In this document: piece by piece, positions 1 to 19,666 of the stretch
How positions within the stretch are numbered: position 1 is the stretch's first letter
Layout: each line of letters starts with the position of its first letter
Assembly: GCA_044227045.1 (NCBI GenBank)
Contig: JBGAFW010000028.1
Coordinates: forward strand, 1-19,666
DNA: 19,666 bases
Source of the DNA: Labilithrix sp.
Lineage (GTDB): Bacteria; Myxococcota_A; Polyangia; Polyangiales; Polyangiaceae
Direction: 5' to 3'
Program-made: the position numbers and the translations under genes
The notes under the pieces: model-generated
What the model was told of the DNA's origin: nothing
The model's input: only the letters and a program-made list of their open reading frames with translations
Database searches by the model: none

Positions 1-1443
1 GTCGTCGCTGCGAGACACTTGCAGCTCGATCAGCTCGTCGCGATGAAGTTCCTTCGCAAGGGCGCGGTCGAGAGCTCCGAAGCGTCGATGCGGTTCCTTC
101 GCGAAGCGAAGGCCGTCGTGAAGCTTCGCAACGAGCACGTCGCGAAGGTCTACGACGTCGGCACGCTCGAGAGCGGCGAGCCGTACATCGTGATGGAGCA
201 CCTCGACGGCTGCGATCTCGCAGCCCTCGCGAAGCAACGTCACACGCTCGAGGTCGGTGAGGCGGTCGAGTACGTGATGCAGGCGTGCGAGGCGCTCGCC
301 GAAGCGCACACGCTCGGGATCGTTCATCGCGACATCAAGCTCGCCAATCTCTTCGTGACGCGTGGTCCCGCCGGTGGGCCGCTCGTGAAGGTCCTCGACT
401 TCGGCATCTCGAAGACGAACCCCTTCGGCGAGTCGGAGCACGACATGACGCGCACCGCGTCGATGCTCGGAAGCCCGCGCTTCATGTCCCCCGAGCAGAT
501 GCGCGATCCACGCGCGGTCGACGCGCGCTCGGACATCTGGTCGCTCGGCGTCGTGCTCTATCGCCTCGTCGCCGGTCATCCGCCGTTCGAGGCAGACACG
601 CTGGGTCGGCTCCTCACGATGGTCATGCACGAGCAAGAGCCGCCGCTGTCGGCCGTGCGCCACGACCTTCCGCACGGCTTCGACATCGTCGTCGGTCGCT
701 GCTTGCAGAAGGATCCCAACCAACGCTTCTCGAACGTCGCAGAGCTCGCGTACGCGCTCGTTCCGTTCTCGGTCGATCCCGCGCGCGCGCGGAGCTCGGC
801 CGACCGCATCGCCGCCGTCTTGAGCTTGCCGATGCTTCCGCCGATCACCGGCGACATCTCGATCCCGATCTCGGTCGGCGCGCCGGCGTCGAGCCGAAGC
901 CACTCGGGTCGCATCAGCAATCCTCCGGGCGCGAGCGACACGGGCACGGCGGCTCCTTGGGCCGGCACGCACGGCGGCGGCTCCCGCACGCCGCGCACGG
1001 GCTCACGTGGGACGACGATCTGGCTGGGCGTCGCGCTCGCCGGCATCCTCGTCGGCTCCGCCATCTTCGCGAAGGTCCGCCGCGATCAGCAGCACGACGC
1101 CCAAGCGCAGCAGCGCGCCGAGCAGCAGCAAGCCGCCGCCGCGCAGCAGCTCCCCGTCGTCACCGCGACGATGACCGCGTCGCCGAATCCTCCGCCCGCG
1201 ACGCAGCCTTCGTTCGATCCGAGCCCCACGCCCCCGGCCGCGGTCGTGATCGGGGCTTCGCCGTCCACCCAGCAGCAGCAGCAGCCCCAGCCCGTCGCGG
1301 CGTCCCCCCAGAGCCCGCCGCGCGGCGCCGCCGTCGTGCGCGGTGGTACGCGCAAGCAGCCCACACCGCCGTCTTCGCCGCGCCCGTCGACTCCGTCTCC
1401 GAAGTCGAATGAGGGTGACGGTATCCCTACGACGCGCGATTAA
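1..1443 (+). CDS. Hanks-type Ser/Thr protein kinase, truncated at the 5' end by the window edge; kinase domain, single TM helix, Gln/Pro-rich extracytoplasmic tail
   Basis: Frame 1 is open from nt 1 and the Gly-loop must lie upstream. Canonical motifs are present: VAMK (subdomain II Lys), HRDIKLANLF catalytic loop, DFGISK, SPE, DIWSLGVVLY and a subdomain XI Arg. A hydrophobic helix TTIWLGVALAGILVGSAIFAKV follows, then a low-complexity Q/P/A/S-rich C-terminus. The stop TAA is at 1441-1443. Confidence 0.9.
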   Translation, partial: VVAARHLQLDQLVAMKFLRKGAVESSEASMRFLREAKAVVKLRNEHVAKVYDVGTLESGEPYIVMEHLDGCDLAALAKQRHTLEVGEAVEYVMQACEALAEAHTLGIVHRDIKLANLFVTRGPAGGPLVKVLDFGISKTNPFGESEHDMTRTASMLGSPRFMSPEQMRDPRAVDARSDIWSLGVVLYRLVAGHPPFEADTLGRLLTMVMHEQEPPLSAVRHDLPHGFDIVVGRCLQKDPNQRFSNVAELAYALVPFSVDPARARSSADRIAAVLSLPMLPPITGDISIPISVGAPASSRSHSGRISNPPGASDTGTAAPWAGTHGGGSRTPRTGSRGTTIWLGVALAGILVGSAIFAKVRRDQQHDAQAQQRAEQQQAAAAQQLPVVTATMTASPNPPPATQPSFDPSPTPPAAVVIGASPSTQQQQQPQPVAASPQSPPRGAAVVRGGTRKQPTPPSSPRPSTPSPKSNEGDGIPTTRD

Positions 1444-1468
1444 GCTTTAATGTGAGCGTGAGGGAAGC

Positions 1469-2500
1469 GTGAGGCTGTCTCGTCAGAGACTCGGTGTCGT
1501 CGGCGCCTGCAGCGCGATCGCGTTCTTCGCGTCCGCGATCGCCGACATGGCGACCGGGCGCGAATCGATCGCGCACGGCGCGGGCGGAGACAACGAAGGC
1601 GGCGCCGCCGCCGCCGAGTCGCTCTTCCAAGAGGCGCGCCGCTTGATGGACGCCAAGCGCTATGGCGACGCGTGCCCGAAGTTCGCCGCGAGCCAAAAGC
1701 TCTCTCCCGCGATCGGCACGCTGCTGAACCTCGCCGACTGCTATGAGAAGAACAACCAGCTCGCCAGCGCATGGGCGCGCTTTCACGAGGCGATCGCGCT
1801 CGCGCAGCGGCTGAATCGAACGAACCGCGAGCAGACCGCGCGCGAGCGTGCCGACAAGCTCGAGCCTCGGCTCATTCGGCTCACGATCCTCTCGCACGCG
1901 TCGAACATCGACGTGAAGCTCGACGGCAACCCGATCGATCCCGCCGTGCTCGGCACCGCGATTCCGGTCGACGCAGGCAAGCACTCGATCGAGGCGACCG
2001 CGAAGAACAAGAAGCCATTCTCGAAGGACATCGAGGTCAGCGAGAAGAAGAAGGATCCTTCCGTCGACATCCCTCCGCTCGAAGACGAGCCGAAGGAGAC
2101 GAAGAACGAGGTCACGCCGCCGATCACCGAGCCTCCGAAAGAAGAGCGCGGCGGATGGTCCACCCAGAAGACGATCGGCGTCATCGCGGGCGCAGCGGGC
2201 ATCGTCGGCCTCGGCGTCGGCGGGTACTTCGGGCTGAAGACGTCCTCGACGTGGAACGACGCGAAGTCCCACTGCAACCAAGACCTCGACTGCGACGCGA
2301 CGGGCGTGAACCTCGCCTCGCAGGCAAAGAGCTCCGGCAACATCGCGACGATCGCGATGATCGCGGGCGGAGTGCTCCTCGTCGGTGGCGGCGTCCTGTT
2401 CTTCACCGCGCCGAGCAGCAGCGCGGCGGTCGGCAAGAACGGCCTTCGTGTTCGTGGAGGTGTCGGCCTCGGGTCGGTGGTGCTCGGAGGCCAGTTCTAG
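1469..2500 (+). CDS. Secreted/membrane protein with N-terminal signal peptide, TPR-like helical segment, PEGA-like beta domain, K/E/P-rich linker and two C-terminal TM helices
   Basis: GTG start at 1469 is preceded by GAGGGA at about 1460-1465. The n/h signal region is MRLSRQRLGVVGACSAIAFFASAIA. The PEGA-like stretch is IRLTILSHASNIDVKLDGNPID...AGKHSIEATAKNKKPFSKDIEV. Hydrophobic helices are TIGVIAGAAGIVGLGVGGYFGL and IATIAMIAGGVLLVGGGVLFF. The gene lies 25 nt after the kinase stop, and its stop TAG (2498-2500) abuts the next ATG. Confidence 0.75.
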   Translation: MRLSRQRLGVVGACSAIAFFASAIADMATGRESIAHGAGGDNEGGAAAAESLFQEARRLMDAKRYGDACPKFAASQKLSPAIGTLLNLADCYEKNNQLASAWARFHEAIALAQRLNRTNREQTARERADKLEPRLIRLTILSHASNIDVKLDGNPIDPAVLGTAIPVDAGKHSIEATAKNKKPFSKDIEVSEKKKDPSVDIPPLEDEPKETKNEVTPPITEPPKEERGGWSTQKTIGVIAGAAGIVGLGVGGYFGLKTSSTWNDAKSHCNQDLDCDATGVNLASQAKSSGNIATIAMIAGGVLLVGGGVLFFTAPSSSAAVGKNGLRVRGGVGLGSVVLGGQF

Positions 2501-3784
2501 ATGCACGTCGCCCGGCGGCTCGCCCTTACGGGCATCCTCGTCGGCTTCGTCGTCTCCGGTCTCATCGCGTGCAATGCCATCCTCGGCGTTCAAGACGTCT
2601 CGCTCGCGAAGAAGGACGGCGGCGGCGAAGAGGATCTCGACACCGGCGACGGAACGATCATCGACGACGACAGCGGTCCGGTCGGTCCGAGTCGTCCCAA
2701 CGTGTTCCAAGCCGCGCTCGGCGATCAGCATTCGTGCGCGCGAAAGCCTGCCGGCACGGTCCGCTGCTGGGGTGACGACACACAAGGTCAAACCGGCGCA
2801 GGCGTGACGTCCGACGGCGGCGTGATCGCTCTCCCGGTCGACGTCGCGGGCGTCAGCGACGCGATCGACATCGCCGCGGGACGCAACCACACCTGCATCG
2901 CGCGCAAGAGCGGCACGGTGTCGTGTTGGGGCTACAACCTCGACGGGCAGCTTGGTAATGGCGAGTCGGCGAACCGCCACTCCACGCCCGTCGACGTGAA
3001 GAACCTGAGCGGCGCGGTCGCGGTCGCGGCAGGCGGCAACTTCTCGTGCGCGCTCCGCAACGGCGGGACCGTCGCCTGCTGGGGAGGCAACGGCAGCGGC
3101 CAGCTCGGCAAAGGCGACGAGTCACCGGCGCTCACGCCGGTCGCCGTCGTCGATCTCACCGGCGTCGCGTCGATCTCTGCGGGGCAAGCGCACACGTGCG
3201 CGGTGAAGACCGACGGGAGCGTCGCCTGTTGGGGCGATGGCCTCAACGGTCAGCTCGGATCGGGAAAGCCGGAGAGCAAGTCGTCTCCGGTGGTCGTCGG
3301 CTCTCTGCCCGAAGCCTCGATGGTGTCGGCGGGTGAGCGCTCCACGTGCGCGCTCACGAAGACGGGCTCGGTCTACTGCTGGGGAGCCAACGAGCTCGGC
3401 CAACTCGGAAGCGGCGCGACCAACGCCACCGCCAACCCTTCGCCGATCGTCGTCGCCAACCTGACCGACGCGGCGACGATCTGGAGCGGCCGCAACCACA
3501 CGTGTGCGGTTCGAAAGTCGGGCGCGGTCGTGTGTTGGGGATCGGGATCACGCGGTCAGCTCGGCGATGGGCAGCCTCGCGTCGACGGCGGAGGACCCAC
3601 GCCGCAGCTCGTGCAGGTCTCGGGCATCCAGAGCGCGGTCGGCGTCGGCGCAGGCGGCGATCACACGTGCGCGCCGACACGCACGAACGCGATCGTGTGC
3701 TGGGGCGACAACGATCGCGGGCAGCTCGGCAACGGCACGCAGAAGAGCGAGCTCTCGCCCGTCAGCGTCACTGGGTACCCGTAG
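2501..3784 (+). CDS. RCC1-repeat (seven-blade beta-propeller) lipoprotein
   Basis: The ATG at 2501 directly follows the upstream stop, suggesting translational coupling. The signal peptide has the lipobox LIAC (MHVARRLALTGILVGFVVSGLIAC). There are seven repeats of the RCC1 signature, about 50 aa each: VRCWGDDTQGQTG, VSCWGYNLDGQLGNG, VACWGGNGSGQLGKG, VACWGDGLNGQLGSG, VYCWGANELGQLGSG, VVCWGSGSRGQLGDG and IVCWGDNDRGQLGNG. Confidence 0.9.
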   Translation: MHVARRLALTGILVGFVVSGLIACNAILGVQDVSLAKKDGGGEEDLDTGDGTIIDDDSGPVGPSRPNVFQAALGDQHSCARKPAGTVRCWGDDTQGQTGAGVTSDGGVIALPVDVAGVSDAIDIAAGRNHTCIARKSGTVSCWGYNLDGQLGNGESANRHSTPVDVKNLSGAVAVAAGGNFSCALRNGGTVACWGGNGSGQLGKGDESPALTPVAVVDLTGVASISAGQAHTCAVKTDGSVACWGDGLNGQLGSGKPESKSSPVVVGSLPEASMVSAGERSTCALTKTGSVYCWGANELGQLGSGATNATANPSPIVVANLTDAATIWSGRNHTCAVRKSGAVVCWGSGSRGQLGDGQPRVDGGGPTPQLVQVSGIQSAVGVGAGGDHTCAPTRTNAIVCWGDNDRGQLGNGTQKSELSPVSVTGYP

Positions 3785-3824: not shown

Positions 3825-3880
3825 ATTGCGTGGATTTCCCGCCAGTTAGGTCGCGGCACGCAATGTGCGCCTATGTAGGT

Positions 3881-5683
3881 ATGCTTCTGCGACCGCTCTT
3901 CGCGACCCTCCTCGTGACGTGCGTCGGTGCCAGCGCGGCATGCTCGGCCGACGCCTCCTCGGACGGAACGGACGACGCGGAGTCGGGCGAAGACGAGCTT
4001 CGGTTTCGCGCAGGCGCGGTCGACAAGACGCTGCCGGAGGTCGACGCGCAGGGCTACGAGATCGATCTGAAGGTCAACGACGTCCCTGGTCACGAGACGT
4101 TCACCGCCTCGGTCAAAGGCAACTACATCGCGACCGCCGATCTCACGACGCTCACGCTCGACTTCGAGGGCAACACGATCGACGACGTGACCGTGAGCGG
4201 ACGTCACGCGGAGCACACGCGCGACGGATCGAAGCTCGTCATCAAGCTCCCTTCTCGGATCGCGAGCGGCCGATCGCTGTCCACGCGCGTCACCTACCAC
4301 GGCGATCTCGCGCAGGTGGACGGCGCCGACCCGAACGACTTCGCCGCGTTTGGCGGCTTCATGGTCAAGCAGCGCAACACCGAGGGCAAGCGCATCTACT
4401 CCTCGCTGAGCTGGCCCTACAAAGCGCGTCGATGGCTGCCGCTCCGCGATCACCCGCGCGACGCCGCGATGGTGGCGATCTCGGCGACGTTCCCGAAGGC
4501 CTTCACCGTGCTCGCGAACGGAAAGCGCGTCAGCACGCAGGACAACGCGTCCGACGGATCGAAGACGTGGCGCTACGAAGCGCTCACGCCGATGCCCGCC
4601 TACGACTTCCACGTGTCTGCCTACGAAGGCTGGTCCGTCCACGAGGAGCACGCCGCGTCAGGCGTCCCCGTCACGTCGTACATGTACGCGAACGCGTCGT
4701 CGAAGCAGTCGAAGATCTACGGTGATCTCCCGAAGGTGCTCGACTTCTACGAGGCCACCTTCGGCAAGTACAAGTGGGGCTCGGCGACGTTCATCGAGGA
4801 GCCCATCTTCGGTGGTGGAATGGAGCACGCGTCCGTCGTGAGCATGGACGAGACGCTCTTCCCCGACCCGGTCGAGGCGCGAAAGACCGCCTTCCACGAG
4901 CTCGCGCATCATTGGAGCGGCAACCTCGTTCACTTCCGGCAGTGGAACGACTTCTGGCTCTCCGAGGGCTTCACCGAGTACCTCACCGGCCGCGCGATCA
5001 CGCACGTCGACGGCGCCGAGGCAGGCAAGGCGGTCTGGCGCGAATACCTCACGACGGCGCTCCAAGAGGATCGATCGAATCCCCATCCGCTCGCTCCGCC
5101 GGGCGAAGAGATCGACGTGCTCACGATCTTCGACGGCATCTCGTATCAAAAGGGCGCGCTGACGCTCCGGATGCTCGAGCACATCGTCGGCGAGCCGAAG
5201 ATGACGGCGTTCCTCAAAGGTTGGTTCGATCGCCATGGCTTTGGCGCCGCGGTGAGCACCGATGACTTGCAGCGCGAGCTCTCCGCCGAGTCGGGCAAGG
5301 ATCTCTCCGCGTTCTTCGCGTCGTTCGTTCGTCAGGGCTACCACCCCGAGCTACGCGTGACGTTCACCGCGAACGGCACCAGCACCGACGTGAAGGTCGA
5401 GCAGCTTCAAGACAAAGGCCCCGCTGGCGGGTTCGCTGGCTTCCCGCTCGACGTCGACCTCGTCGACGACGCCGGCCACGCCGAGCGCGTCAGCGTCGAC
5501 ATCACGGGCAAGACGTCGACGAAGCGATTCACGACGACGCGTCCGACCAAATCGATCGTCGCTGATCCCGACGAGTACGCCGTCGCCGTCGAGACCTGCG
5601 GTCAGACCGGCGGGGGCGAATGCAAAGCGAGCCAGCGCTGCGCGCCCCAACGCGCCGGTGTCTCGGCCTGCGTCCCGAAGTAG
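3881..5683 (+). CDS. M1-family zinc metallopeptidase (aminopeptidase N-like gluzincin), secreted or lipoprotein
   Basis: HELAHHWSGN...18 aa...WLSEGFTEY is the HEXXH-(18)-E zinc site. GGMEH matches the GXMEN exopeptidase motif. The signal peptide is MLLRPLFATLLVTCVGASAAC, with Cys candidates for lipidation. The start at ATG 3881 was chosen because GC3 rises sharply there. In-frame ATG 3863 and GTG 3830 are alternatives, but codon third positions upstream of 3881 look non-coding. The Cys-rich C-terminal tail is CGQTGGGECKASQRCAPQRAGVSAC. Confidence 0.88.
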   Translation: MLLRPLFATLLVTCVGASAACSADASSDGTDDAESGEDELRFRAGAVDKTLPEVDAQGYEIDLKVNDVPGHETFTASVKGNYIATADLTTLTLDFEGNTIDDVTVSGRHAEHTRDGSKLVIKLPSRIASGRSLSTRVTYHGDLAQVDGADPNDFAAFGGFMVKQRNTEGKRIYSSLSWPYKARRWLPLRDHPRDAAMVAISATFPKAFTVLANGKRVSTQDNASDGSKTWRYEALTPMPAYDFHVSAYEGWSVHEEHAASGVPVTSYMYANASSKQSKIYGDLPKVLDFYEATFGKYKWGSATFIEEPIFGGGMEHASVVSMDETLFPDPVEARKTAFHELAHHWSGNLVHFRQWNDFWLSEGFTEYLTGRAITHVDGAEAGKAVWREYLTTALQEDRSNPHPLAPPGEEIDVLTIFDGISYQKGALTLRMLEHIVGEPKMTAFLKGWFDRHGFGAAVSTDDLQRELSAESGKDLSAFFASFVRQGYHPELRVTFTANGTSTDVKVEQLQDKGPAGGFAGFPLDVDLVDDAGHAERVSVDITGKTSTKRFTTTRPTKSIVADPDEYAVAVETCGQTGGGECKASQRCAPQRAGVSACVPK

Positions 5684-5803
5684 CAGCGCTCGGCCGCGCG
5701 AAACACGAGCACCTGTACGAACCTGCAGGTTTTCCGTGGGATCACGGGGTCGCGATGACCGTTGGTGGATGAAGTTAATTGGGCGATACTCGTCTCCTTC
5801 TCT

Positions 5804-6823
5804 ATGCCGAAGAAGGACGACGCGGAAAGCAAGGCGACGACGGACGGCGAGCACGGCGAGCACGGCTCCGGCCACATCATCCAGTCGCTGCTCGTCAACA
5901 TCGCCATCGCGCTCGTGAAGGCGGTCGCAGCGTTCTTCACGAAGTCGGGCTCGATGCTCGCCGAGGCGCTCCACTCCTTCTCCGATTGCGGCAACCAGGT
6001 CCTCCTGCTCGTGGGCGTTCGACAGTCGAAGAAGCCCGCCGACGACACGCACCCCTTCGGCTATGGGCGCGCGATCTATTTCTGGTCTTTCATGGTGGCG
6101 CTCCTGCTCTTCCTCGGCGGCGGCGCCTTCTCCATCTACGAAGGCATCCACAAGATCCGTGAGCCCGAGCCGGTCGAGCGCGTGTGGCTTGGCATCGGGA
6201 TCCTCGCGGTGTCGCTCGTGCTCGAAGGGAGCGCGACGCTCTCGAACATTCGCGAGCTCAACAAGCGACGCGGCGACAAGGCGTTCGTCCAGTACCTACG
6301 CGACACGACCGACTCGGATCTCGTCGTGGTGTTCGGTGAGAACTCCGCGGCGGTGCTCGGGCTGTTCTTCGCGATCGCCGCGCTTGGTCTCTCCGCCGCG
6401 ACCGGAGATGGCCGCTGGGACGGCATCGGCAGCGTCGCGATCGGCCTCGTGCTCGTCGGCGTGGCGGGCTTCCTCGCGATCGAGGTGAGCTCGCTGCTCC
6501 TCGGCGAAGCGGCGCCGCCGGAGATCACGGACGCGGCGCACGACACCGCCAAGCGCTTCACCGACATCGAGAAGATCCTGAACGTCGTGACGATGCAGCA
6601 AGGACCAGGCGAGGTGCTCGTTCACATCAAGGCGTCGTTCACCGCCACGCTCACGATCGAGGATGCCTGCCGCGTCATCAACGAGTACGAAGCCGCGCTC
6701 CGCGCCGCGCGCCCCGAGATCCGTTGGGTGTTCGTGGAGCCGGACATCCCGAAGACGCCGTCGCAGCTCAAGCCGCGCAACGCGATCGTGAAGACGCGCG
6801 CGATCAGCAAAGACGCGAACTGA
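5804..6823 (+). CDS. Cation diffusion facilitator (CDF) family divalent-metal efflux transporter with His-rich N-terminus
   Basis: TM2 carries HSFSD (HxxxD). The N-terminus is His-rich (DGEHGEHGSGH). There are six predicted TM helices and a typical C-terminal cytoplasmic domain (VHIKASFTATLTIEDACRVINEYE). ATG 5804 was chosen because the 42-nt in-frame extension from TTG 5762 has low GC3. Confidence 0.88.
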   Translation: MPKKDDAESKATTDGEHGEHGSGHIIQSLLVNIAIALVKAVAAFFTKSGSMLAEALHSFSDCGNQVLLLVGVRQSKKPADDTHPFGYGRAIYFWSFMVALLLFLGGGAFSIYEGIHKIREPEPVERVWLGIGILAVSLVLEGSATLSNIRELNKRRGDKAFVQYLRDTTDSDLVVVFGENSAAVLGLFFAIAALGLSAATGDGRWDGIGSVAIGLVLVGVAGFLAIEVSSLLLGEAAPPEITDAAHDTAKRFTDIEKILNVVTMQQGPGEVLVHIKASFTATLTIEDACRVINEYEAALRAARPEIRWVFVEPDIPKTPSQLKPRNAIVKTRAISKDAN

Positions 6824-9102: not shown

Positions 9103-9221
9103 GCCGAAGGCGCGGCCGCGAGATGGCATGAAGACCACGAGAAGTGATCGTCCATTGCGCCAGCTGAGGCTGTAAGATTAGGGTGGCACGGGCTCTCGGT
9201 TGGGGCCGCCGTGCTTCAGCC

Positions 9222-10793
9222 ATGGCCGGCGATATTCGGAGCAAGAAGCCGAAGGTTCTGGGCGCGCGCGTCGCGGGGCTGCGGCTCACGCCCGAAGAGC
9301 GCTTCGTCATGGCACGCATCGACGGCCGGCTCTCCGTCGACGAGCTCGCGAGCGTGACGGGCCTCGAAGGTGATCGCCTCGAGAAGATCGTCTCGAAGCT
9401 CGCGTTCGACGGGGCGGTCGATCTCGGCGAGGAGCCTCGCTTCGCCGCCGCGGCCGCGGCCTTCGCGCCGGCCGAGGGAGAGACGACGTCGATGGCGGAG
9501 CTCGCGGCGGCGCTCGGCATGGATCCGAGCTCGTTTGGCGGAGGAAAGACCGCGCCGGTCGAGATGCCTCCCCCGACGCCGCGCAAGGTGATCGTCCGCC
9601 CGAAGATTCGCCCGAAGGCCGACCCGAGCGCGGTGGGCCTGGCGACGGCGCCTGCGCCTGCGGCCGAGGAAGCCGCGCCGCCGGTGCCCGCGGCACACGA
9701 CAGCGAACGCGATTTGCCCGACGTGCAGTCGGCGCTCGACCTCGCCGCGCTCGAAGCCTTCGGCGACGAGACGCCTCCCGACGCCGAGCCTGCGTCGCCG
9801 GGCGATCCCCCTCGCCGGGCCGCGCCACGCGCGCAGCAAGCCAAGAACCGCGCCGCCGTCGACGAAGCCCCGCCGCAGCTCGATGAGCTCGAAGAGGTCC
9901 ATGACGAGCTCGAGGAGGTCCACGACGAGCTCGAGGAGGTGCACGACGAGCTCGAAGAGGTCCACGACGAAGAGGACCAGCTCATCGAGCTCGATGATGA
10001 GGGAAACCCCGTCAGTCGTTCGGAGCAAAACGCACGTGACCGCGCCAGCGATCGCGAGCAAAAGGAAGAGGACGAGGTCTCACGCGCCGTCGCCGAGCGC
10101 AACTACCGCCAGGTGTTCGAGAAGAGCTGGCATCCGCTGCCCGTCGACCAGCGCATCGCGGGGGCGCGCACGGCGCACGGTCCCGACTTGCTCGCGCTGT
10201 GCTTCGATCCCGATCCGCGCGTCATCGCCGCCATCCTCGAGAACTCGACGGTGGGCCTCGATCACGTTCGCTTGATCGCCTTTTACCATCGTACCGGGAC
10301 GGGCCTCGAGATCGTCGCCCGCCGTCAGGACTGGCTCCGCGACATCCTCGTCGAGCGCCGCCTCCTGCGTAACCCGATGATCGGCGACATCGTGCTCTCG
10401 CGCGTGATGGGCCCGAAGCGGCTCTTCCAGACGTACAAGATCGCGATCGATCGCGAGATCCCCGAGCTCACGCGGACGAAGGTACGCGGCTACATCCGGC
10501 AGAAATGGCAGAACGCCACCTCGGAGGAGCGCGCCGATCTCTTGCTCCGGACGGAGGCCCGCTGCCTCATCATCATGACCGGCTGCACCTTCGACGCGAA
10601 GACGACCGCGATCCTCTGCGGCCGTCCGATCAACTCCGTCATGTTCGTGCAGTCGATCGCGAAGTTCCCCGCCTCACCGCCCGCGCTCCTCGCGCATTTG
10701 ATGAAGCAGAACTTCGTGCGGAAGAACCCGCCGCTGAAAAAGATGCTCCTCGCCCACCCGAACATGCCGGGTGACGTGAAGCGAAACATCTAG
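9222..10793 (+). CDS. Hypothetical protein: conserved-looking N-terminal about 70-aa domain, long Pro/Ala/Asp-rich disordered region containing (ELEEVHD)4, C-terminal about 260-aa alpha-helical (HEAT/ARM-like) domain
   Basis: The ORF runs to TAG 10791-10793. ATG 9222 is preferred over GTG 9183 because the 39-nt extension has low GC3. The N-terminus is LTPEERFVMARIDGRLSVDELASVTGLEGDRLEKIVSKLAFDGAV. The C-terminal region has repeated amphipathic helices (DPRVIAAILENSTVGLDHVRLIAF ... PALLAHLMKQNFVRKNPPLKKMLLAHPNMP). I do not recognise a named family. Confidence 0.75.
   Translation: MAGDIRSKKPKVLGARVAGLRLTPEERFVMARIDGRLSVDELASVTGLEGDRLEKIVSKLAFDGAVDLGEEPRFAAAAAAFAPAEGETTSMAELAAALGMDPSSFGGGKTAPVEMPPPTPRKVIVRPKIRPKADPSAVGLATAPAPAAEEAAPPVPAAHDSERDLPDVQSALDLAALEAFGDETPPDAEPASPGDPPRRAAPRAQQAKNRAAVDEAPPQLDELEEVHDELEEVHDELEEVHDELEEVHDEEDQLIELDDEGNPVSRSEQNARDRASDREQKEEDEVSRAVAERNYRQVFEKSWHPLPVDQRIAGARTAHGPDLLALCFDPDPRVIAAILENSTVGLDHVRLIAFYHRTGTGLEIVARRQDWLRDILVERRLLRNPMIGDIVLSRVMGPKRLFQTYKIAIDREIPELTRTKVRGYIRQKWQNATSEERADLLLRTEARCLIIMTGCTFDAKTTAILCGRPINSVMFVQSIAKFPASPPALLAHLMKQNFVRKNPPLKKMLLAHPNMPGDVKRNI
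9885..9968 (+). repeat. Perfect in-frame tandem repeat of 4 x 21 bp (gagctcga[a/g]gaggt[c/g]ca[t/c]gac) encoding (ELEEVHD)4
   Basis: Units occupy 9885-9905, 9906-9926, 9927-9947 and 9948-9968 and differ only at synonymous or wobble positions. Flanking codons continue the pattern loosely: LDELEEVHD upstream and EEDQLIELDDE downstream. Confidence 0.95.
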
Positions 10794-10814: not shown

Positions 10815-11240
10815 TCAGGCCTTCTTCGCGGGCGCGGCCTGCGCCTTGAGCAGATCGCGGATCTCCGTGAGGAGCTTCTCCTGCGCGGGCGGCTCGGGCG
10901 GCGGGGCCTGATGCCGGAGCTTGTTGTAGGCGCGCACGATCAAGAACACGATGAACGCGACGATGAACAGCTCGATGAAGGACTGGAGTGCATCGCCGAA
11001 CCGGATCGCGACCTCCTTCGAGGCCTCCTTGCCGTCGGGACCGAAGACCGCCGGCTGGAGCACGTAGCGGAGCTCGGTGAAGTTCACCTTGCCGGTGATG
11101 AGCCCGATCGGCGGCATGATCACCTTCTCGACGAGCGCGGTGACGACCTTGCCAGAAGCCGCGCCGATGATGACGCCGACGGCGAGGTCGATGAAGTTCC
11201 CTTTGATCGCGAACTCGCGAAACTCTTTGACGATACTCAT
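10815..11240 (-). CDS. mscL: Large-conductance mechanosensitive channel MscL
   Basis: MSIVKEFREFAIKGNFIDLAVGVIIGAASGKVVTALVEKVIMPPIGL is the hallmark MscL N-terminus and TM1. TM2 is FIELFIVAFIVFLIV, followed by a charged C-terminal helix. The ATG is preceded by GAGGGGG. The stop is TGA (reverse complement of tca at 10815-10817). Confidence 0.95.
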   Translation of the reverse strand: MSIVKEFREFAIKGNFIDLAVGVIIGAASGKVVTALVEKVIMPPIGLITGKVNFTELRYVLQPAVFGPDGKEASKEVAIRFGDALQSFIELFIVAFIVFLIVRAYNKLRHQAPPPEPPAQEKLLTEIRDLLKAQAAPAKKA

Positions 11241-11255
11241 GTGCGGAGCCCCCTC

Positions 11256-12203
11256 TCAGAAGAACGTGTAGACGAGGTTGATGGACGCGATCGAATCGAG
11301 CTCTTCGACGTTCGGCAGCGGCTTGTTTTCGTAACGCGCGGTGTACGTCGTCGCGAGCGCGAGGCTGTCGGCCACGTTCGACTTCAGGCCGATGTCGGCG
11401 ATGAAGCGGTACGTCTCGATGTCGGCAAAGTTTTGCAGATATTCGACGCTCGCGATGAACGACACTTCCTTGCGCAGCTTGTTCTCGTAGCCGAGAAAGA
11501 GGCGGGCGTTGTGGAGTGTCTGCGTGCGATCGAGAGGAGGAGGTGCGGGTGTCCCGGGCGGTGATCCATCCGGGACGTTCTGCGCCAGCGCGTCGGTGCG
11601 GCGAACGTCGTGCTGCAAGTCGTAGCCGCCTTCGATCTGGAGCCGATGCGTCTTCGTGTTGATGAAGTAGTACGCGACGCCAGGGTCGACGTTGAGTCGA
11701 AGGTCGAGACCTTGGAAGCGATCGCGACGCGCCGTCGACTGGAGGAAGAGCGAGACTTCGTTCGTGAGGAAGTAGTCGTAGCGAAGGAGGCCTTGGTAGT
11801 TCTCGACCGTCGCCTCGATCGGCGCGCCCTTCTTTCCGGCCTTCGCGAAGTTGCCGGCGAGGGCGATGCTGAGCTGGTGCTCGTCACGGCGAAAGCGTGC
11901 CTTGCCGAACGACGTGACCGCGATCGTGCGCGCGTTTCCCGCGGAGAAGAGGCCGCCGAGGCCGAGGCTCACATCGTTCGCGTAGCGCGGGTCGTCGTCT
12001 TTGCGCTCCGTCCCCGTGACGAAGCCGCCTTTGGCGATGTCGGTGTTGCCCTTCGTCGCGGTGGACGCCTTCACCGTTTCGCTCGGCTGCAGAGGCTGCT
12101 CTTTGGCGGCCTCTTGTGCGAAAGCGCTCTTCGATTCGAGGAAGGTCGTCAGCGCGAGGGCGACGACGCAGCTCAAGACAACAGGGCGGGTCAGGATGGC
12201 CAT
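11256..12203 (-). CDS. Outer-membrane beta-barrel protein, DUF481 (YdiY-like) type
   Basis: The signal peptide is MAILTRPVVLSCVVALALTTFLESKSAFA. The body has alternating amphipathic beta-strand pattern rich in Y/G/N/T. The C-terminal ...SINLVYTFF ends in Phe, as is typical of beta-barrel OMPs. Its stop is 15 nt upstream of the mscL start codon in the direction of transcription, so the two genes probably form an operon. Confidence 0.7.
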   Translation of the reverse strand: MAILTRPVVLSCVVALALTTFLESKSAFAQEAAKEQPLQPSETVKASTATKGNTDIAKGGFVTGTERKDDDPRYANDVSLGLGGLFSAGNARTIAVTSFGKARFRRDEHQLSIALAGNFAKAGKKGAPIEATVENYQGLLRYDYFLTNEVSLFLQSTARRDRFQGLDLRLNVDPGVAYYFINTKTHRLQIEGGYDLQHDVRRTDALAQNVPDGSPPGTPAPPPLDRTQTLHNARLFLGYENKLRKEVSFIASVEYLQNFADIETYRFIADIGLKSNVADSLALATTYTARYENKPLPNVEELDSIASINLVYTFF

Positions 12204-12247
12204 GACGCGCCTGTCTAAGTGATTTATCCGGTTCCGTCACGGCTCTT

Positions 12248-12275
12248 CTGTCGCGGGACAGCCCGGCTCGAGCCG
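12248..12275 (-). terminator. Cluster of two GC-rich palindromes immediately 3' of the lipoprotein gene on the minus strand; candidate terminator or operator
   Basis: ctgtc-gcgg-gacag occupies 12248-12261 (5-bp stem, 4-nt loop). The perfect 12-bp palindrome cggctcgagccg occupies 12264-12275. On the minus-strand transcript these are followed by a comparatively AT-rich stretch (aagagccgtgacggaaccggataaatcacttagac), which also serves as the upstream region of the OMP-mscL operon. Confidence 0.3.
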
Positions 12276-12285
12276 CCGTTCGCGC

Positions 12286-12858
12286 CTACCGAGGCGTGGG
12301 GAACGTGATCGGGATCGTGAGCGTGCTGTCCCAGCACTTCTCGACCTCGGGGAACGGCGTCGTCTTGACGACACCGAGCATGCACTCGGCGACCGGATCG
12401 GGCAGGGTCTTCTCGATCACCTTCACCGTCTTGATCTTGCCTTTGACGTCGACGGTCATCTTGATCTTGACCGTGCCTTCGAGGTTCGGGTTCTTCTTCT
12501 TCCCTTGCGCGTAGCAGTCTTTCAGCTTCGGCCGCGCGCGCTTCTCGAAGTCGACGCCGACGGGCGTGCACTCGTCCTTCGTCTCGCCGACCACGACGGG
12601 CGGCTTCGACGGTGCGCCGGCGTCCGCAGGCGAGTCTGCCACCGGCGCGGAGGACGACGCGGGCGGAGAGGAGGATGCGCTGGACGCGGAGGACGACGCA
12701 GACTCGGATGCAGATGACGACGGCGACGCGTCCGTCATGTCCTCGGGCGCACCGGTCTTCGGCGGCGGCTTGTTGTCACCGCACGCGATGACGAGGCCCG
12801 GCGTGGCGACGGCAAAGAAGAAAGCGGCGACGACCCCAGTCCCAAGCTTCGTCTTCAT
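12286..12858 (-). CDS. Lipoprotein with Ser-rich linker and AgmX/PglI-type (TonB-C-like) C-terminal domain
   Basis: The signal peptide plus lipobox is MKTKLGTGVVAAFFFAVATPGLVIAC. A low-complexity region SPSSSASESASSSASSASSSPPASSSAP follows. The C-terminal domain is KDCYAQGKKKNPNLEGTVKIKMTVDVKGKIKTVKVIEKTLPDPVAECMLGVVKTTPFP with the conserved Cys pattern. The ATG is the reverse complement of cat at 12856-12858, and GTG at 12882 is a possible alternative start. Confidence 0.7.
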   Translation of the reverse strand: MKTKLGTGVVAAFFFAVATPGLVIACGDNKPPPKTGAPEDMTDASPSSSASESASSSASSASSSPPASSSAPVADSPADAGAPSKPPVVVGETKDECTPVGVDFEKRARPKLKDCYAQGKKKNPNLEGTVKIKMTVDVKGKIKTVKVIEKTLPDPVAECMLGVVKTTPFPEVEKCWDSTLTIPITFPTPR

Positions 12859-12910
12859 TCTTGGCGTTATACCCCGAAACACCGCGCCTGCGGGTGCGTT
12901 GGGGACGTGC

Positions 12911-13765
12911 TCACGCGTCTTCGGCTTCCGCAGCGAGGGCTTGGGTGAACGGAAGCGGCGCGCGGCCTCGCTTCTTCAACATGTCGAGCACGAGGTACGT
13001 CGCCAAGGCGGCGGCGAAGTGCTTGAGCGAGTGCCCGCTGACGACACGCGAGGTCGCCTCGTAGACCTGACCGTCGAAGTGCTCGAGGGCCTTGGCTCCA
13101 GCGTAGAGCACGACGACGATGAGCAGCTCGATGCCACGTGAATAACGCGGCGGAAAGAGGAGAAGCATCAGCGGGAGCGCGGCGACGGGGAAGAGCTGCA
13201 CGAACAAGTACACGCGCAGATCGCCGTGGCCCGTCTGCTCCGAGAGTCGCCACATCACGACGCTCGCCACACCCACGAACACGAACGGCAAGAGCAGCAT
13301 CCGCGACCAGTAGATGCTGATGCGCTCCGCGATGACTGCGGCGAAGAGTGACGTGAACGCGATCGACATCGGCAGGCGATCCCAAAACAGCGTCGGGGTC
13401 TTCGGATACAGATGGTAGTAGGCCGACCCGAACGCCGTCAGCATCACGCCGGCGAAGAAGAGGACGTACGCAGGCCGTTCGCGAAGAGACTCGAACGCCG
13501 TATGGGCTCCCGGCCGAAACGGACCGTCCGGATCGCGCGTCGGGCCACGACGCAAGAAGGAGAGCCCGATCCAGCCGACGATGAAGAACGGGATGTTCGA
13601 CAGGACGTTGAACGCGTTCGGGATCGCCTTCGATCCGACGTGGAGCGGCCGCGTGTCGGCGAAGTGGTGGTACGCCTCCGACTGCGGAATGGCGCCGTGC
13701 TTCCACAGCGCGACGCCCGCGCCGATGGCGATGAGAAAGAGAAGGACGACCTTGAGCCCCTTCAT
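12911..13765 (-). CDS. 7-TM alkaline ceramidase-like (CREST superfamily) integral-membrane hydrolase
   Basis: There are seven hydrophobic helices. Conserved polar residues are positioned as in alkaline ceramidase/PAQR-type hydrolases: SNIPFF in TM2, AYYHLY, and the TM7 motif SGHSLKHFAAA (GHxxxH). The N-terminus is MKGLKVVLLFLIAIGAGVALW. The ATG is the reverse complement of cat at 13763-13765, with AAGGTG upstream. Confidence 0.7.
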   Translation of the reverse strand: MKGLKVVLLFLIAIGAGVALWKHGAIPQSEAYHHFADTRPLHVGSKAIPNAFNVLSNIPFFIVGWIGLSFLRRGPTRDPDGPFRPGAHTAFESLRERPAYVLFFAGVMLTAFGSAYYHLYPKTPTLFWDRLPMSIAFTSLFAAVIAERISIYWSRMLLLPFVFVGVASVVMWRLSEQTGHGDLRVYLFVQLFPVAALPLMLLLFPPRYSRGIELLIVVVLYAGAKALEHFDGQVYEATSRVVSGHSLKHFAAALATYLVLDMLKKRGRAPLPFTQALAAEAEDA

Positions 13766-14460: not shown

Positions 14461-18192
<3,732 letters not shown>

Positions 18193-18234
18193 TACGATCC
18201 CTACGGGCCGCGAAAGCGAGGACGAACGGGGAGC

Positions 18235-19666
18235 ATGGGTCGGGCGGAGGCACTTCTCGGCACGAGTCTCGAGTCGCGATACCGACTCGATGCCGTCGTC
18301 ACCGAGTCGCCAGACCTCTTCGTCTTCTCCGGTGAGGACACGCAAGGAACGCCGAATGGCTCCTCGCTGCCGATCGTCATTCGCATGCCGCGAGCACCAC
18401 GCGGCATGTCGATCCAGGAGATCGACGAGGCCTACGCGAAGTTCGCGACCGAGGCGACGCAGCTCGCCGCGATCAGCCGCGCCTCGCCCCATGTCGAGCG
18501 GCTCCTCGCGTCGGGCGAGGTCGAGACGCCCGACCGCGAACGGCTCGCGTTCTGCGTGTTCGAGCGCACCGAGGGCTCCTCGCTCGCCGAGTCGTCACGT
18601 GATCGAGGTGCGACGTCGCTGCAGGCGGCGGTGAAGCTGCTCGATCCGATCGCGTCGGCGCTGGCGACCGCGCACGCGCAAGGCGTCTTTCACGGCGATG
18701 TCCGTCCGGAGAACATCGTCGTCGTCGGGGGTCTCGACGCCGAGCGCCCAGCGCTGAAGCTCCTTCGCTTCACGCTCGCGACGCGCCTCGCGACCGGCGC
18801 TCGCGCGTTCTCTCCGCAGTATGGCGCGCCCGAGCATTTCAAGAAATCGTTCGGCGAGAGCTCGCTGGGTCCGCCCGTCGACGTGTATGGCCTCGCGCTC
18901 TGCCTCATCGAGCTCGTCGTCGGTCAACCTGCGCTCACGGGGACCTCCACGACGGAGCTCTACAAGCAGACGACGGACATCACGCGCCGTCCCACGTTGC
19001 GCGCTCGCGGCGCCGAGGTCTCGGAGGCGATCGATCTCGTGGTCGCGCGCGCCCTCGCGGTGAATCCCAAGCTCCGCTGGCCCACAGCGAAGGACTTCTG
19101 GTCGGCGCTCACCGCGCTCACGGGCCTTGGCGCGCTGACGGAGCCGACCGCGATCCCGATCACGCCTCTTCCTCTTCCGATCGCGACCCCTGCCCCAGCC
19201 CCAGCCCTAGAGCCACTCCTGGACGAAGCCGCGAGCGCGCGCAGCTCTCGGCTCTCGATCACCACCGAGCCGACGCCCGCGATCCCGCCGCCTCCCGGAA
19301 GTCAGCCCAACGTCGTCGCGCCGCCGCCTCCGCCCACGCGCGTGCCGATGTCGCTCGCGCCCTCCTCGACGCCGGCGCCCTCGTCGTCGAAGCCAAAGCG
19401 ACTCGCGAAGGACGCGGCGCGGAGCCATGAGCCCGCGGTCCTTCGTCGTCTCGACGAGGGCGCGGCCGAGTCGCATCCTCCGCGTGGGACGCTCCGCGAT
19501 CCCCGCGCCCGTGCGATCGCGATCGCGGCCGCGAGCCTCGTCACGCTCGCGATCGGCGGGACGCTCATCGCCTCGGTGTTCCGCCGATCGACACCCGCCG
19601 AGCCCACCGCGACCTCCGCGGTAGCGACCTCCTCCACCGCGCCGCCCGTGCCGCTGACCGCATCAT
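18235..19666 (+). CDS. Membrane-anchored predicted pseudokinase: degenerate Hanks kinase fold, Pro-rich linker, TM helix; 3' end runs off the window
   Basis: This ORF is absent from the supplied track because it has no stop in the window. ATG 18235 is in the same frame as the histidine-kinase gene, 42 nt after its TGA, and is the only start codon in that interval; GGGGAG lies immediately upstream. The kinase-like fold is retained: RASPHVERLL, FCVFERTEGSSL, the APE-like YGAPEHF, and DVYGLALCLIELVVG. Catalytic residues are replaced. There is no GxGxxG (TESPDLFVFSGED). VAIK-Lys becomes Arg (PIVIRMP). HRDxK becomes HGDVR. DFG becomes RFT (LKLLRFTLA). A PxP-rich segment and the helix AIAIAAASLVTLAIGGTLIASVF follow. 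Confidence 0.8.
   Translation, partial: MGRAEALLGTSLESRYRLDAVVTESPDLFVFSGEDTQGTPNGSSLPIVIRMPRAPRGMSIQEIDEAYAKFATEATQLAAISRASPHVERLLASGEVETPDRERLAFCVFERTEGSSLAESSRDRGATSLQAAVKLLDPIASALATAHAQGVFHGDVRPENIVVVGGLDAERPALKLLRFTLATRLATGARAFSPQYGAPEHFKKSFGESSLGPPVDVYGLALCLIELVVGQPALTGTSTTELYKQTTDITRRPTLRARGAEVSEAIDLVVARALAVNPKLRWPTAKDFWSALTALTGLGALTEPTAIPITPLPLPIATPAPAPALEPLLDEAASARSSRLSITTEPTPAIPPPPGSQPNVVAPPPPPTRVPMSLAPSSTPAPSSSKPKRLAKDAARSHEPAVLRRLDEGAAESHPPRGTLRDPRARAIAIAAASLVTLAIGGTLIASVFRRSTPAEPTATSAVATSSTAPPVPLTAS

Follow-up and report, generated by a model that had tools for sequence, protein, structure and literature searches.

A possible three-part envelope assembly of Ser/Thr kinase, membrane-anchored adaptor and lipoprotein in Polyangiales

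The first 3784 nucleotides (nt) of a 19,666-nt stretch of Labilithrix DNA, which is the window analyzed here, encode three proteins that may operate together in the cell envelope: a Hanks-type Ser/Thr kinase, a secreted middle protein designated MID, and a predicted lipoprotein that carries an RCC1 propeller. We propose that they form a functional three-part assembly centered on MID, which would join the kinase to a variable lipoprotein. The probability of this reading is put at roughly 0.45; less confidence attaches to a flow of information from sensor to kinase. The proposal draws on the recurrence of kinase and lipoprotein genes beside MID in other genomes and on two short conserved motifs, one at the extreme C-terminus of the kinase and the other directly behind the lipoprotein cysteine.

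Recurrence of the genes in Polyangiales

The genes and their spacing are as follows.

1–1443, plus strand: Hanks-type Ser/Thr kinase gene (Pkinase profile); its 5′ end is cut by the window edge, and about 35 codons are absent
1444–1468, plus strand: spacer with the Shine-Dalgarno-like sequence GAGGGA before the GTG at 1469 (from the sequence)
1469–2500, plus strand: gene for MID, a putative secreted hub or adaptor protein of 343 residues that belongs to a large uncharacterized family (homolog searches)
2501–3784, plus strand: RCC1 lipoprotein gene (seven Pfam RCC1 matches)

The three genes of 1–3784 are real, and the observation from which the original prediction started is confirmed. Codon-position G+C singles out three successive genes on the plus strand in this part of the 19.7-kb window (62–71% G+C throughout); third-position G+C of the three open reading frames (ORFs) is 0.85–0.87, and first positions exceed second positions. 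The kinase gene ends with TAA at 1441–1443, and after a 25-nt spacer MID starts with GTG at 1469. The MID stop, TAG at 2498–2500, abuts the lipoprotein ATG at 2501, just as had been claimed, with a 0-nt gap and a GGAGG sequence 8 nt upstream. No terminator-like site was found in the sequence between the three genes. Since the gaps measure 25 and 0 nt, Shine-Dalgarno sequences are present and no such site intervenes, co-transcription of the kinase, MID and RCC1 genes is plausible.

Recurrence was surveyed by searching 185,579 species genomes for two MID-specific peptide patterns. The scan yielded 80 loci, 56 of them with full flanks and some of the others short-flanked, in which genes were called in this analysis by targeted ORF and motif searches. 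All 80 belong to Polyangiales or to unclassified myxobacterial assemblies, and Labilithrix luteola DSM 27648 is among them. The nearest relatives of the window proteins come from metagenome-assembled genomes of Labilithrix and other Polyangiales; locus L001, a 10.6-kb contig from a public sequencing run, carries a stretch identical to the window.

Searches with tblastn find kinase, MID and RCC1 genes on one strand and arranged as in the window in 20 of 22 loci with MID at least 47% identical. The exceptions at this level are L018, which has no RCC1 match, and L019 and L021, which have no kinase; the space expected for it (about 3893–5950 in L019 and 4150–5950 in L021) holds neither kinase-like sequence nor a convincing plus-strand gene. 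A different transducer in kinase-less loci, such as an extracytoplasmic function (ECF) sigma factor, was considered and rejected, the upstream genes in those with full flanks encoding Dus, LysE, LysR, DUF4202, DUF1993 or proteins with no match.

A same-strand kinase adjoins MID in 51 of the 80 loci (40 of the 56 with full flanks), mostly upstream and sometimes downstream, and the pairing is still present at 34–45% MID identity. The order kinase–MID–lipoprotein occurs in 26 of the 80 loci and MID–lipoprotein–kinase in 4. A further 16 loci have kinase–MID with no motif-bearing lipoprotein, 5 have MID–kinase, and in 7, often on truncated contigs, MID stands alone. MID is the constant element, and kinase and lipoprotein are its frequent but separable partners. 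The predicted synteny of the three genes thus stands for close relatives, and that of kinase and MID extends well beyond them, but elsewhere the RCC1 head is replaced, and some loci have no kinase.

The MID-adjacent kinases constitute, by sequence, a separate subfamily. On comparison with the window kinase they show a median identity of 54%; for the remaining kinases of these loci the figure is 32%. Each has one transmembrane (TM) helix, except for the L073 kinase with two, and the tail beyond the helix measures 87–154 residues in 49 of 51. An arginine at position −2 together with a hydrophobic residue at −6 to −4 is found in 38 of the 51 adjacent kinases, with endings such as GIPxTRD, YDERL, LDGRF and LYGRRR. 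Among 505 control ORFs drawn from these loci, 34 show it (odds ratio 40, Fisher p = 7e-28). The further MID diverges, the further the adjacent kinase tends to diverge too (Spearman rho 0.76, p = 8e-11).

A gene predicted to encode a lipoprotein follows MID in most loci, at −7 to +1 nt from the MID stop; the two genes either share 1, 4 or 7 nt or lie end to end. Right after the lipoprotein cysteine these proteins share the sequence C-[NAS]-x-[IL]-Φ-G-[IV]-[EQ]-D-[VL]-x-L, which reads CNAILGVQDV in the window. The motif is found behind a signal peptide directly after the MID stop in 52–55 of the 80 loci; all six frames of about 0.77 Mb of loci contain 9 matches elsewhere, several of which lie within about 1–2 kb of MID. 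Positions that were left free by the search pattern are also conserved, with E at +8 in 27 of 46 sequences, D at +9 in 32 of 46, V at +10 in 22 of 46 and L at +12 in 24 of 46. Across loci, the 30 residues after the motif are 74% D, E, G, P, S, T or A.

The heads carried behind this motif are diverse. RCC1 heads are limited to a Labilithrix-like clade and a few other loci. Other heads include an FGE-sulfatase domain (E = 1e-19), a protein of about 530–556 residues with a CarboxypepD_reg-like segment, PD40-like domains, Cys-rich repeats and domains with no match. The RCC1 propeller is therefore not a defining feature but one of many interchangeable heads that are joined to a common N-terminal motif. 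Particular heads appear to come with their own variants of the motif. In one subclass (L043, L044, L048, L059 and L064), the order is MID, an FGE-sulfatase lipoprotein with the variant C-A-[KQ]-L-V-G-I-[TE]-D-T, and a kinase ending in P-L-D-G-R-[FLH].

The original prediction had described a split receptor, in which ligand recognition by a propeller protein and a PEGA protein is relayed to a sensor-less kinase. Co-conservation of the genes, their coupling and the existence of a kinase subfamily speak for the linkage of the parts. The receptor as drawn has nevertheless changed: the RCC1 head does not define it, the kinase tail ends in a conserved motif, MID rather than the kinase is constant, and PEGA applies only at the level of the fold or clan. 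Passage of a signal from ligand to propeller to kinase is what we infer from the arrangement.

Architecture of the three proteins

In the kinase, three segments follow the catalytic domain.

1015–1071 (residues 339–357), plus strand: single TM helix, TIWLGVALAGILVGSAIFA (hydropathy scan)
1072–1419, plus strand: Pro/Gln/Ala/Ser/Thr-rich linker, predicted to be periplasmic (composition)
1420–1440, plus strand: conserved extreme C-terminal motif G-I-P-T-T-R-D-COOH (ortholog alignment)

The kinase matches Pkinase (PF00069) with 138.6 bits (cut-off 31.7; E = 3e-40), and the window retains the catalytic motifs VAMK (nt 37–48), HRDIKLAN (nt 325–348), DFG (nt 397–405) and SPE. Very probably it is catalytically active, as had been predicted, though this assignment is indirect because the Gly-rich ATP loop falls outside the window, whose first residue lies just after it. 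Orthologs at 85–89% identity have GAGGMG at this position. Just before the TM helix, the ortholog alignment reveals a conserved cytoplasmic juxtamembrane motif, PPGaxDTGTAAPWxGTHGG (886–1014, residues 296–338), with the core DTGTAAPWxGTHGG. It is rich in threonine, a trait shared with the juxtamembrane segments that other bacterial receptor kinases autophosphorylate.

Beyond the single TM helix the original prediction saw only a low-complexity tail with no sensor domain. A Pfam scan of the 123-residue tail (24 P, 19 Q, 17 A, 12 S, 11 T) indeed finds no domain match, but the tail ends in GIPTTRD, and GIPx[ST]RD is kept at the extreme C-terminus of 20 orthologs. The tail is unstructured and yet, with this conserved motif, is not featureless.

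The predicted features of MID are the following.

1469–1579, plus strand: signal peptide (homologs show the Sec-type n-h-c pattern and AxA cleavage sites)
1595–1870, plus strand: TPR-like helical domain with invariant Cys69 and Cys91 and the motifs ACPKF and LLNLADCYEK
1874–2071, plus strand: transthyretin-like or PEGA-like β-sandwich (AlphaFold2, Foldseek)
2168–2410, plus strand: membrane hairpin, composed of TM1 (2168–2236), a 35-residue loop with His-Cys-x5-Cys (2237–2341) and TM2 (2342–2410)
2411–2497, plus strand: C-terminal tail ending G-x-G-x-G-S-x-x-L-x-G-x-F (homolog alignment)

MID belongs to a very large family that has no Pfam model. A word-indexed search returned more than 533 homologs, all of about 330 residues and nearly all unnamed. 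When 1.84 billion cluster representatives (50%-identity clusters) were searched exhaustively with a profile, 7,964 MID-like sequences passed E ≤ 1e-30 and 32,873 passed E ≤ 1e-3. The best 150 of these profile matches are nearly all 310–370 residues long, and none of the 150 is a kinase–MID fusion. Two long matches, P0206 and P0185, were considered as fusions and rejected; their N-terminal extensions resemble read-through of a kinase tail or mis-called starts. Another homolog, P0124 (521 residues), has the TPR-like and β-sandwich unit tandemly duplicated before a single membrane hairpin. A sequence search of the PDB with MID matched no solved structure. The window protein has the full architecture of the family: signal peptide, ACPKF/LNLAxCYEK helical domain, β-sandwich, two-Cys hairpin and aromatic C-terminus. 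The hydrophobic h-region of the signal peptide is present in 52 of 54 scoreable loci.

An AlphaFold2 (AF2) model of MID, built from 15 sequences, has a mean predicted local distance difference test score (pLDDT) of 68. The helical repeat domain (residues 43–134) and the β-sandwich (residues 136–201) are both modeled with pLDDT near 90. The two long helices of the hairpin, 232–266 and 277–313, are of lower confidence, and a short C-terminal β-hairpin falls below 50. TPR profiles score below threshold on MID (TPR_2, 17 bits with a cut-off of 27; TPR_12, 15 bits with a cut-off of 30), as they do in 15 of 15 family members scanned with Pfam. The helix-turn-helix repeats that characterize the TPR fold are present, although they number only about two to three. 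The domain is similar to the one in the envelope biogenesis factor BepA.

The PEGA profile (PF08308) does not match the window protein even at E ≤ 10; it is sub-threshold in 4 of 15 homologs, with a best E of 0.004. Foldseek places the β-sandwich closest to the transthyretin-like domains of carboxypeptidases D, N and M (E 0.014–0.3; 0.014 for D). On the model, the PEGA assignment is valid only at the level of fold or clan, the clan being that of CarboxypepD_reg. Of the secreted TPR/PEGA protein with two TM helices that was originally described 25 nt downstream of the kinase, the spacer, the signal peptide, the hairpin and the folds have survived scrutiny, whereas both domain names lie below Pfam thresholds.

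The inter-helix loop contains two cysteines in 79 of the 80 loci, and its T258 and W262 are near-invariant. A positive-inside charge count on the hairpin gives no bias that would orient the loop. In the C-terminal tail, G331, G333, G335, S336, G341 and F343 are invariant, and the last residue is F or W in 71 of 80 loci.

The lipoprotein is divided into four segments.

2501–2569, plus strand: lipoprotein signal peptide with the lipobox L-I-A-C (...SGLIA-C24; from the sequence)
2570–2605, plus strand: Cys24, predicted to be lipidated, and the tether motif C-N-A-I-L-G-V-Q-D-V-S-L (conserved across loci)
2606–2695, plus strand: acidic low-complexity linker (sequence; pLDDT 32–36)
2696–3781, plus strand: seven-blade RCC1-like β-propeller (AF2)

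With a lipobox whose Cys24 is invariant in 26 orthologs, the RCC1 protein is a predicted lipoprotein. The original claim that it consists of seven RCC1 repeats is borne out by seven RCC1 (PF00415) stretches (194 bits), by a match to WD40_RLD (PF25390) of 291 bits (cut-off 150), and by the AF2 model, in which residues 66–427 (pLDDT about 97) form 28 strands, that is, seven blades. Residues 20–61 have pLDDT below 50. Because the motif and the linker are disordered and not packed on the propeller, the motif would be a free, membrane-proximal peptide. Among solved relatives, UVR8 is the best match (1e-50), followed by HERC2, RCC1 and BLIP-II (1jtd, E = 3e-11); the ACR4 ectodomain (7a0j) is a weaker sequence match, at E = 7e-7.

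A proposed assembly and its alternatives

In the proposed assembly the kinase, with a single TM helix and a catalytic domain that has to lie in the cytoplasm, would extend into the periplasm its tail of about 120 unstructured residues, ending in G-I-P-x-[ST]-R-D-COOH. The signal peptide of MID would direct it out of the cytoplasm and the C-terminal helical hairpin would anchor it in the inner membrane, which would leave the TPR-like and transthyretin-like domains in the periplasm as well. The lipoprotein would be tethered by its acylated cysteine, followed by the C-N-A-I-L-G-V-E/Q-D-V motif, the disordered acidic linker and the RCC1 propeller.

MID could then serve as an adaptor, with its TPR-like groove capturing the free C-terminal peptide of the kinase, much as other TPR domains take EEVD or PTS1 peptides. 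Capture of this kind is suggested because the TPR-like domain has for a neighbor a partner whose free C-terminus is conserved and is carried on a long, flexible tail. A second surface of MID may bind the tether motif of the lipoprotein, and the β-sandwich and the membrane-proximal C-terminal β-hairpin are candidates for it; this second docking site is suggested by the conserved peptide with which the co-translated lipoprotein begins. Binding of a ligand to the propeller would alter the clustering or activity of the kinase. Paralogous modules would retain the kinase, MID and both motifs while exchanging the lipoprotein head, affording a plug-in repertoire of sensors. It is possible to go further, and to see here a very large, undescribed family of three-component receptor Ser/Thr kinases with exchangeable sensor heads in Labilithrix, Polyangium and other soil-dwelling Polyangiales, in which MID connects the free kinase C-terminus, Φ-x-x-R-x-COOH, to the first ten residues of the lipoprotein, C-N-x-I-L-G-I-E-D-V. 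This broader proposal is doubtful.

Several observations weigh against the three-part assembly. No kinase adjoins MID in 16 of the 56 full-flank loci, and the genes upstream of MID in these loci are unrelated. In L019 and L021 the kinase is missing even though the RCC1, M1 peptidase and CDF genes are in place. MID and the lipoprotein occur with no adjacent kinase in 22 of the 80 loci, some of them short-flanked, and kinase and MID occur with no motif-bearing lipoprotein in 21 loci in all. The co-divergence of kinase and MID could stem from duplication as a unit, with no contact between the proteins. Enzyme-looking heads such as FGE-sulfatase are as compatible with an effector as with a sensor. 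Evidence on how the MID loop is oriented conflicts, the two cysteines suggesting an oxidizing compartment and the signal peptide predicting a cytoplasmic loop. Finally, the 80 loci were picked by MID-specific patterns and are a sample of one part of the MID family.

In the main rival explanation, regulation would run the other way. MID and the lipoprotein might be an autonomous envelope unit, such as an enzyme or a binding module, anchored at the membrane. Where a kinase is present, it would control this unit from the cytoplasmic side, one conceivable target of phosphorylation being the Ser/Thr-rich inter-helix loop of MID, L-K-T-S-S-T-W. The MID–lipoprotein loci with no adjacent kinase, including the two RCC1 ortholog loci, and the FGE-sulfatase heads are in keeping with such a unit. 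So are the near-invariant T258 and W262, since the loop that contains them would be cytoplasmic if the signal peptide is cleaved, and the conserved Thr-rich juxtamembrane motif of the kinase, which is typical of autophosphorylation sites. However, a conserved C-terminal motif on a periplasmic kinase tail of about 100–150 residues would be left unexplained, and two invariant cysteines in the loop fit a periplasmic disulfide better than a cytoplasmic phospho-loop. On balance, regulation in this direction seems unlikely.

The lipoprotein motif invites another explanation. It begins at position +2 after the lipidated cysteine, where lipoprotein sorting signals sit, as is established for Lol avoidance and for the export signal of Bacteroidota. 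The motif is followed by an acidic linker and is independent of the head domain, and the TPR domain of MID resembles that of BepA. It might therefore be a localization signal for retention, surface export or release that is read by MID as a sorting factor or chaperone, the kinase being a neighbor that makes no contact. A general factor, however, is not expected in one copy per cargo with translational coupling, nor would its signal be expected to be almost confined to MID-adjacent genes, and the dedicated kinase subfamily with its C-terminal motif would be unaccounted for. We consider this explanation improbable. Mere neighborhood, in which the genes are independent, adjacent through shared ancestry in one clade, and their motifs a compositional or phylogenetic residue, is disfavored and highly improbable: the M1 peptidase and CDF genes are likewise syntenic in many orthologs while standing outside any module, but they vanish beyond the orthologs, whereas the kinase and lipoprotein pairings last to 35% MID identity, across the orders kinase–MID–lipoprotein, MID–lipoprotein–kinase and MID–kinase and across different heads, and the motif statistics rest on control ORFs from the same loci.

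Neighboring genes and known systems

Downstream of the three genes the window encodes an M1 peptidase, a CDF transporter, a P450 on the minus strand, a TetR regulator and further unrelated genes. The M1 peptidase and CDF genes (3830–6823, plus strand) also follow the RCC1 gene in L007–L009, L011, L015, L016, L019, L021, L023 and L026. They were considered as members of the module and rejected: synteny is confined to close orthologs, where the distance varies and insertions sometimes intervene, and paralogous modules lack both genes. Their position is ordinary clade synteny.

At 9183–10793 (plus strand) lies a gene for a 536-residue protein of no Pfam family, with four tandem copies of ELEEVHD and the N-terminal segment ERFVMARIDGRLSVDELASVTGL. 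A similar segment, GFVLSRIDGRISMHDLVAITGI, starts an ORF 387 nt downstream of MID in L018. A run of envelope genes on the minus strand (10815–13765) encodes MscL, a DUF481 outer-membrane protein, a weakly TonB_C-like protein and a ceramidase-like membrane protein. A large hybrid histidine kinase (14461–18192, plus strand) has three GAF and two PAS domains, HisKA, HATPase_c and a receiver. Directly after its stop at 18192, a second kinase-like ORF (18193–19665, plus strand; first ATG near 18235) runs off the end of the window. Because its Pkinase match is weak (2e-18), HGD replaces HRD and DFG is lacking, this ORF looks like a pseudokinase. Its TM helix, AIAIAAASLVTLAIGGTLIASVF, is followed by a Pro/Ala/Thr-rich tail, the layout seen in the MID-associated kinases. 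The two genes may represent a pairing of a histidine kinase with a Ser/Thr-type kinase.

Myxobacteria possess hundreds of Hanks kinases, many with no recognizable sensor domain, whose inputs are largely unknown. If the three-part assembly is correct, it would explain the input to a class of such "sensor-less" membrane kinases through a lipoprotein head attached by an adaptor, and it would give a role to a family of thousands of sequence clusters that has no Pfam model. The two short motifs can be mutated, so that the adaptor idea is directly testable. The original prediction held that RCC1 lipoprotein co-sensors were undescribed, and the literature search agrees; no description was found of a MID-like protein, nor of PEGA, TPR or RCC1 lipoproteins linked to myxobacterial Ser/Thr kinases.

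Lipoprotein-assisted sensing is known for histidine kinases, as in the Rcs and Cpx systems, and the literature yielded no report of it for bacterial Ser/Thr kinases. In Rcs (the outer-membrane lipoprotein RcsF, the inner-membrane adaptor IgaA, and RcsD/RcsC) and in NlpE–CpxA, a lipoprotein is the periplasmic sensing element, and in Rcs its signal reaches a membrane kinase, whose own periplasmic part is minimal, by way of a distinct adaptor in the inner membrane. The proposed chain of lipoprotein, MID and kinase would follow the same logic, and the resemblance is one of logic only. The transducer here is a Hanks Ser/Thr kinase rather than a histidine kinase; MID combines TPR-like and transthyretin-like domains, the heads can be exchanged, and the genes lie side by side with translational coupling. 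Pfam and NCBIfam scans of the three window proteins gave no match to the RcsF, IgaA, NlpE, YycH or YycI families. In WalK–YycH–YycI of Bacillus and CseA–CseC of Streptomyces, membrane-anchored or lipoprotein accessories encoded in the sensor-kinase operon modulate the kinase. The module resembles them in having accessory proteins encoded beside a kinase, but those systems have other folds, another kinase class and fixed partners, with neither exchange of sensing domains nor short terminal motifs.

Propellers as sensors of single-pass Ser/Thr kinases are exemplified by plant CRINKLY4/ACR4 (RCC1-like) and by PknD of Mycobacterium tuberculosis (NHL), in which a seven- or six-blade propeller is fused to the kinase. 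In contrast, the window propeller is a separate lipoprotein, at most non-covalently linked, and is replaced by other domains in paralogs. The TPR grooves of Hop and CHIP (EEVD) and of PEX5 (PTS1) recognize a short free C-terminal motif on a flexible tail; they provide an analogy, and no more, for MID and the kinase GIPxTRD-COOH, being eukaryotic and cytosolic. BLIP-II is a precedent for a bacterial extracytoplasmic seven-blade RCC1-like propeller as a protein-binding module, but it is a soluble β-lactamase inhibitor that is not lipidated and has no link to a kinase or to a MID-like gene. Compared with all of these systems, what would be new in the assembly proposed here is the class of transducer, the family to which the adaptor belongs, the pair of connecting motifs and the exchange of lipoprotein heads throughout the family.

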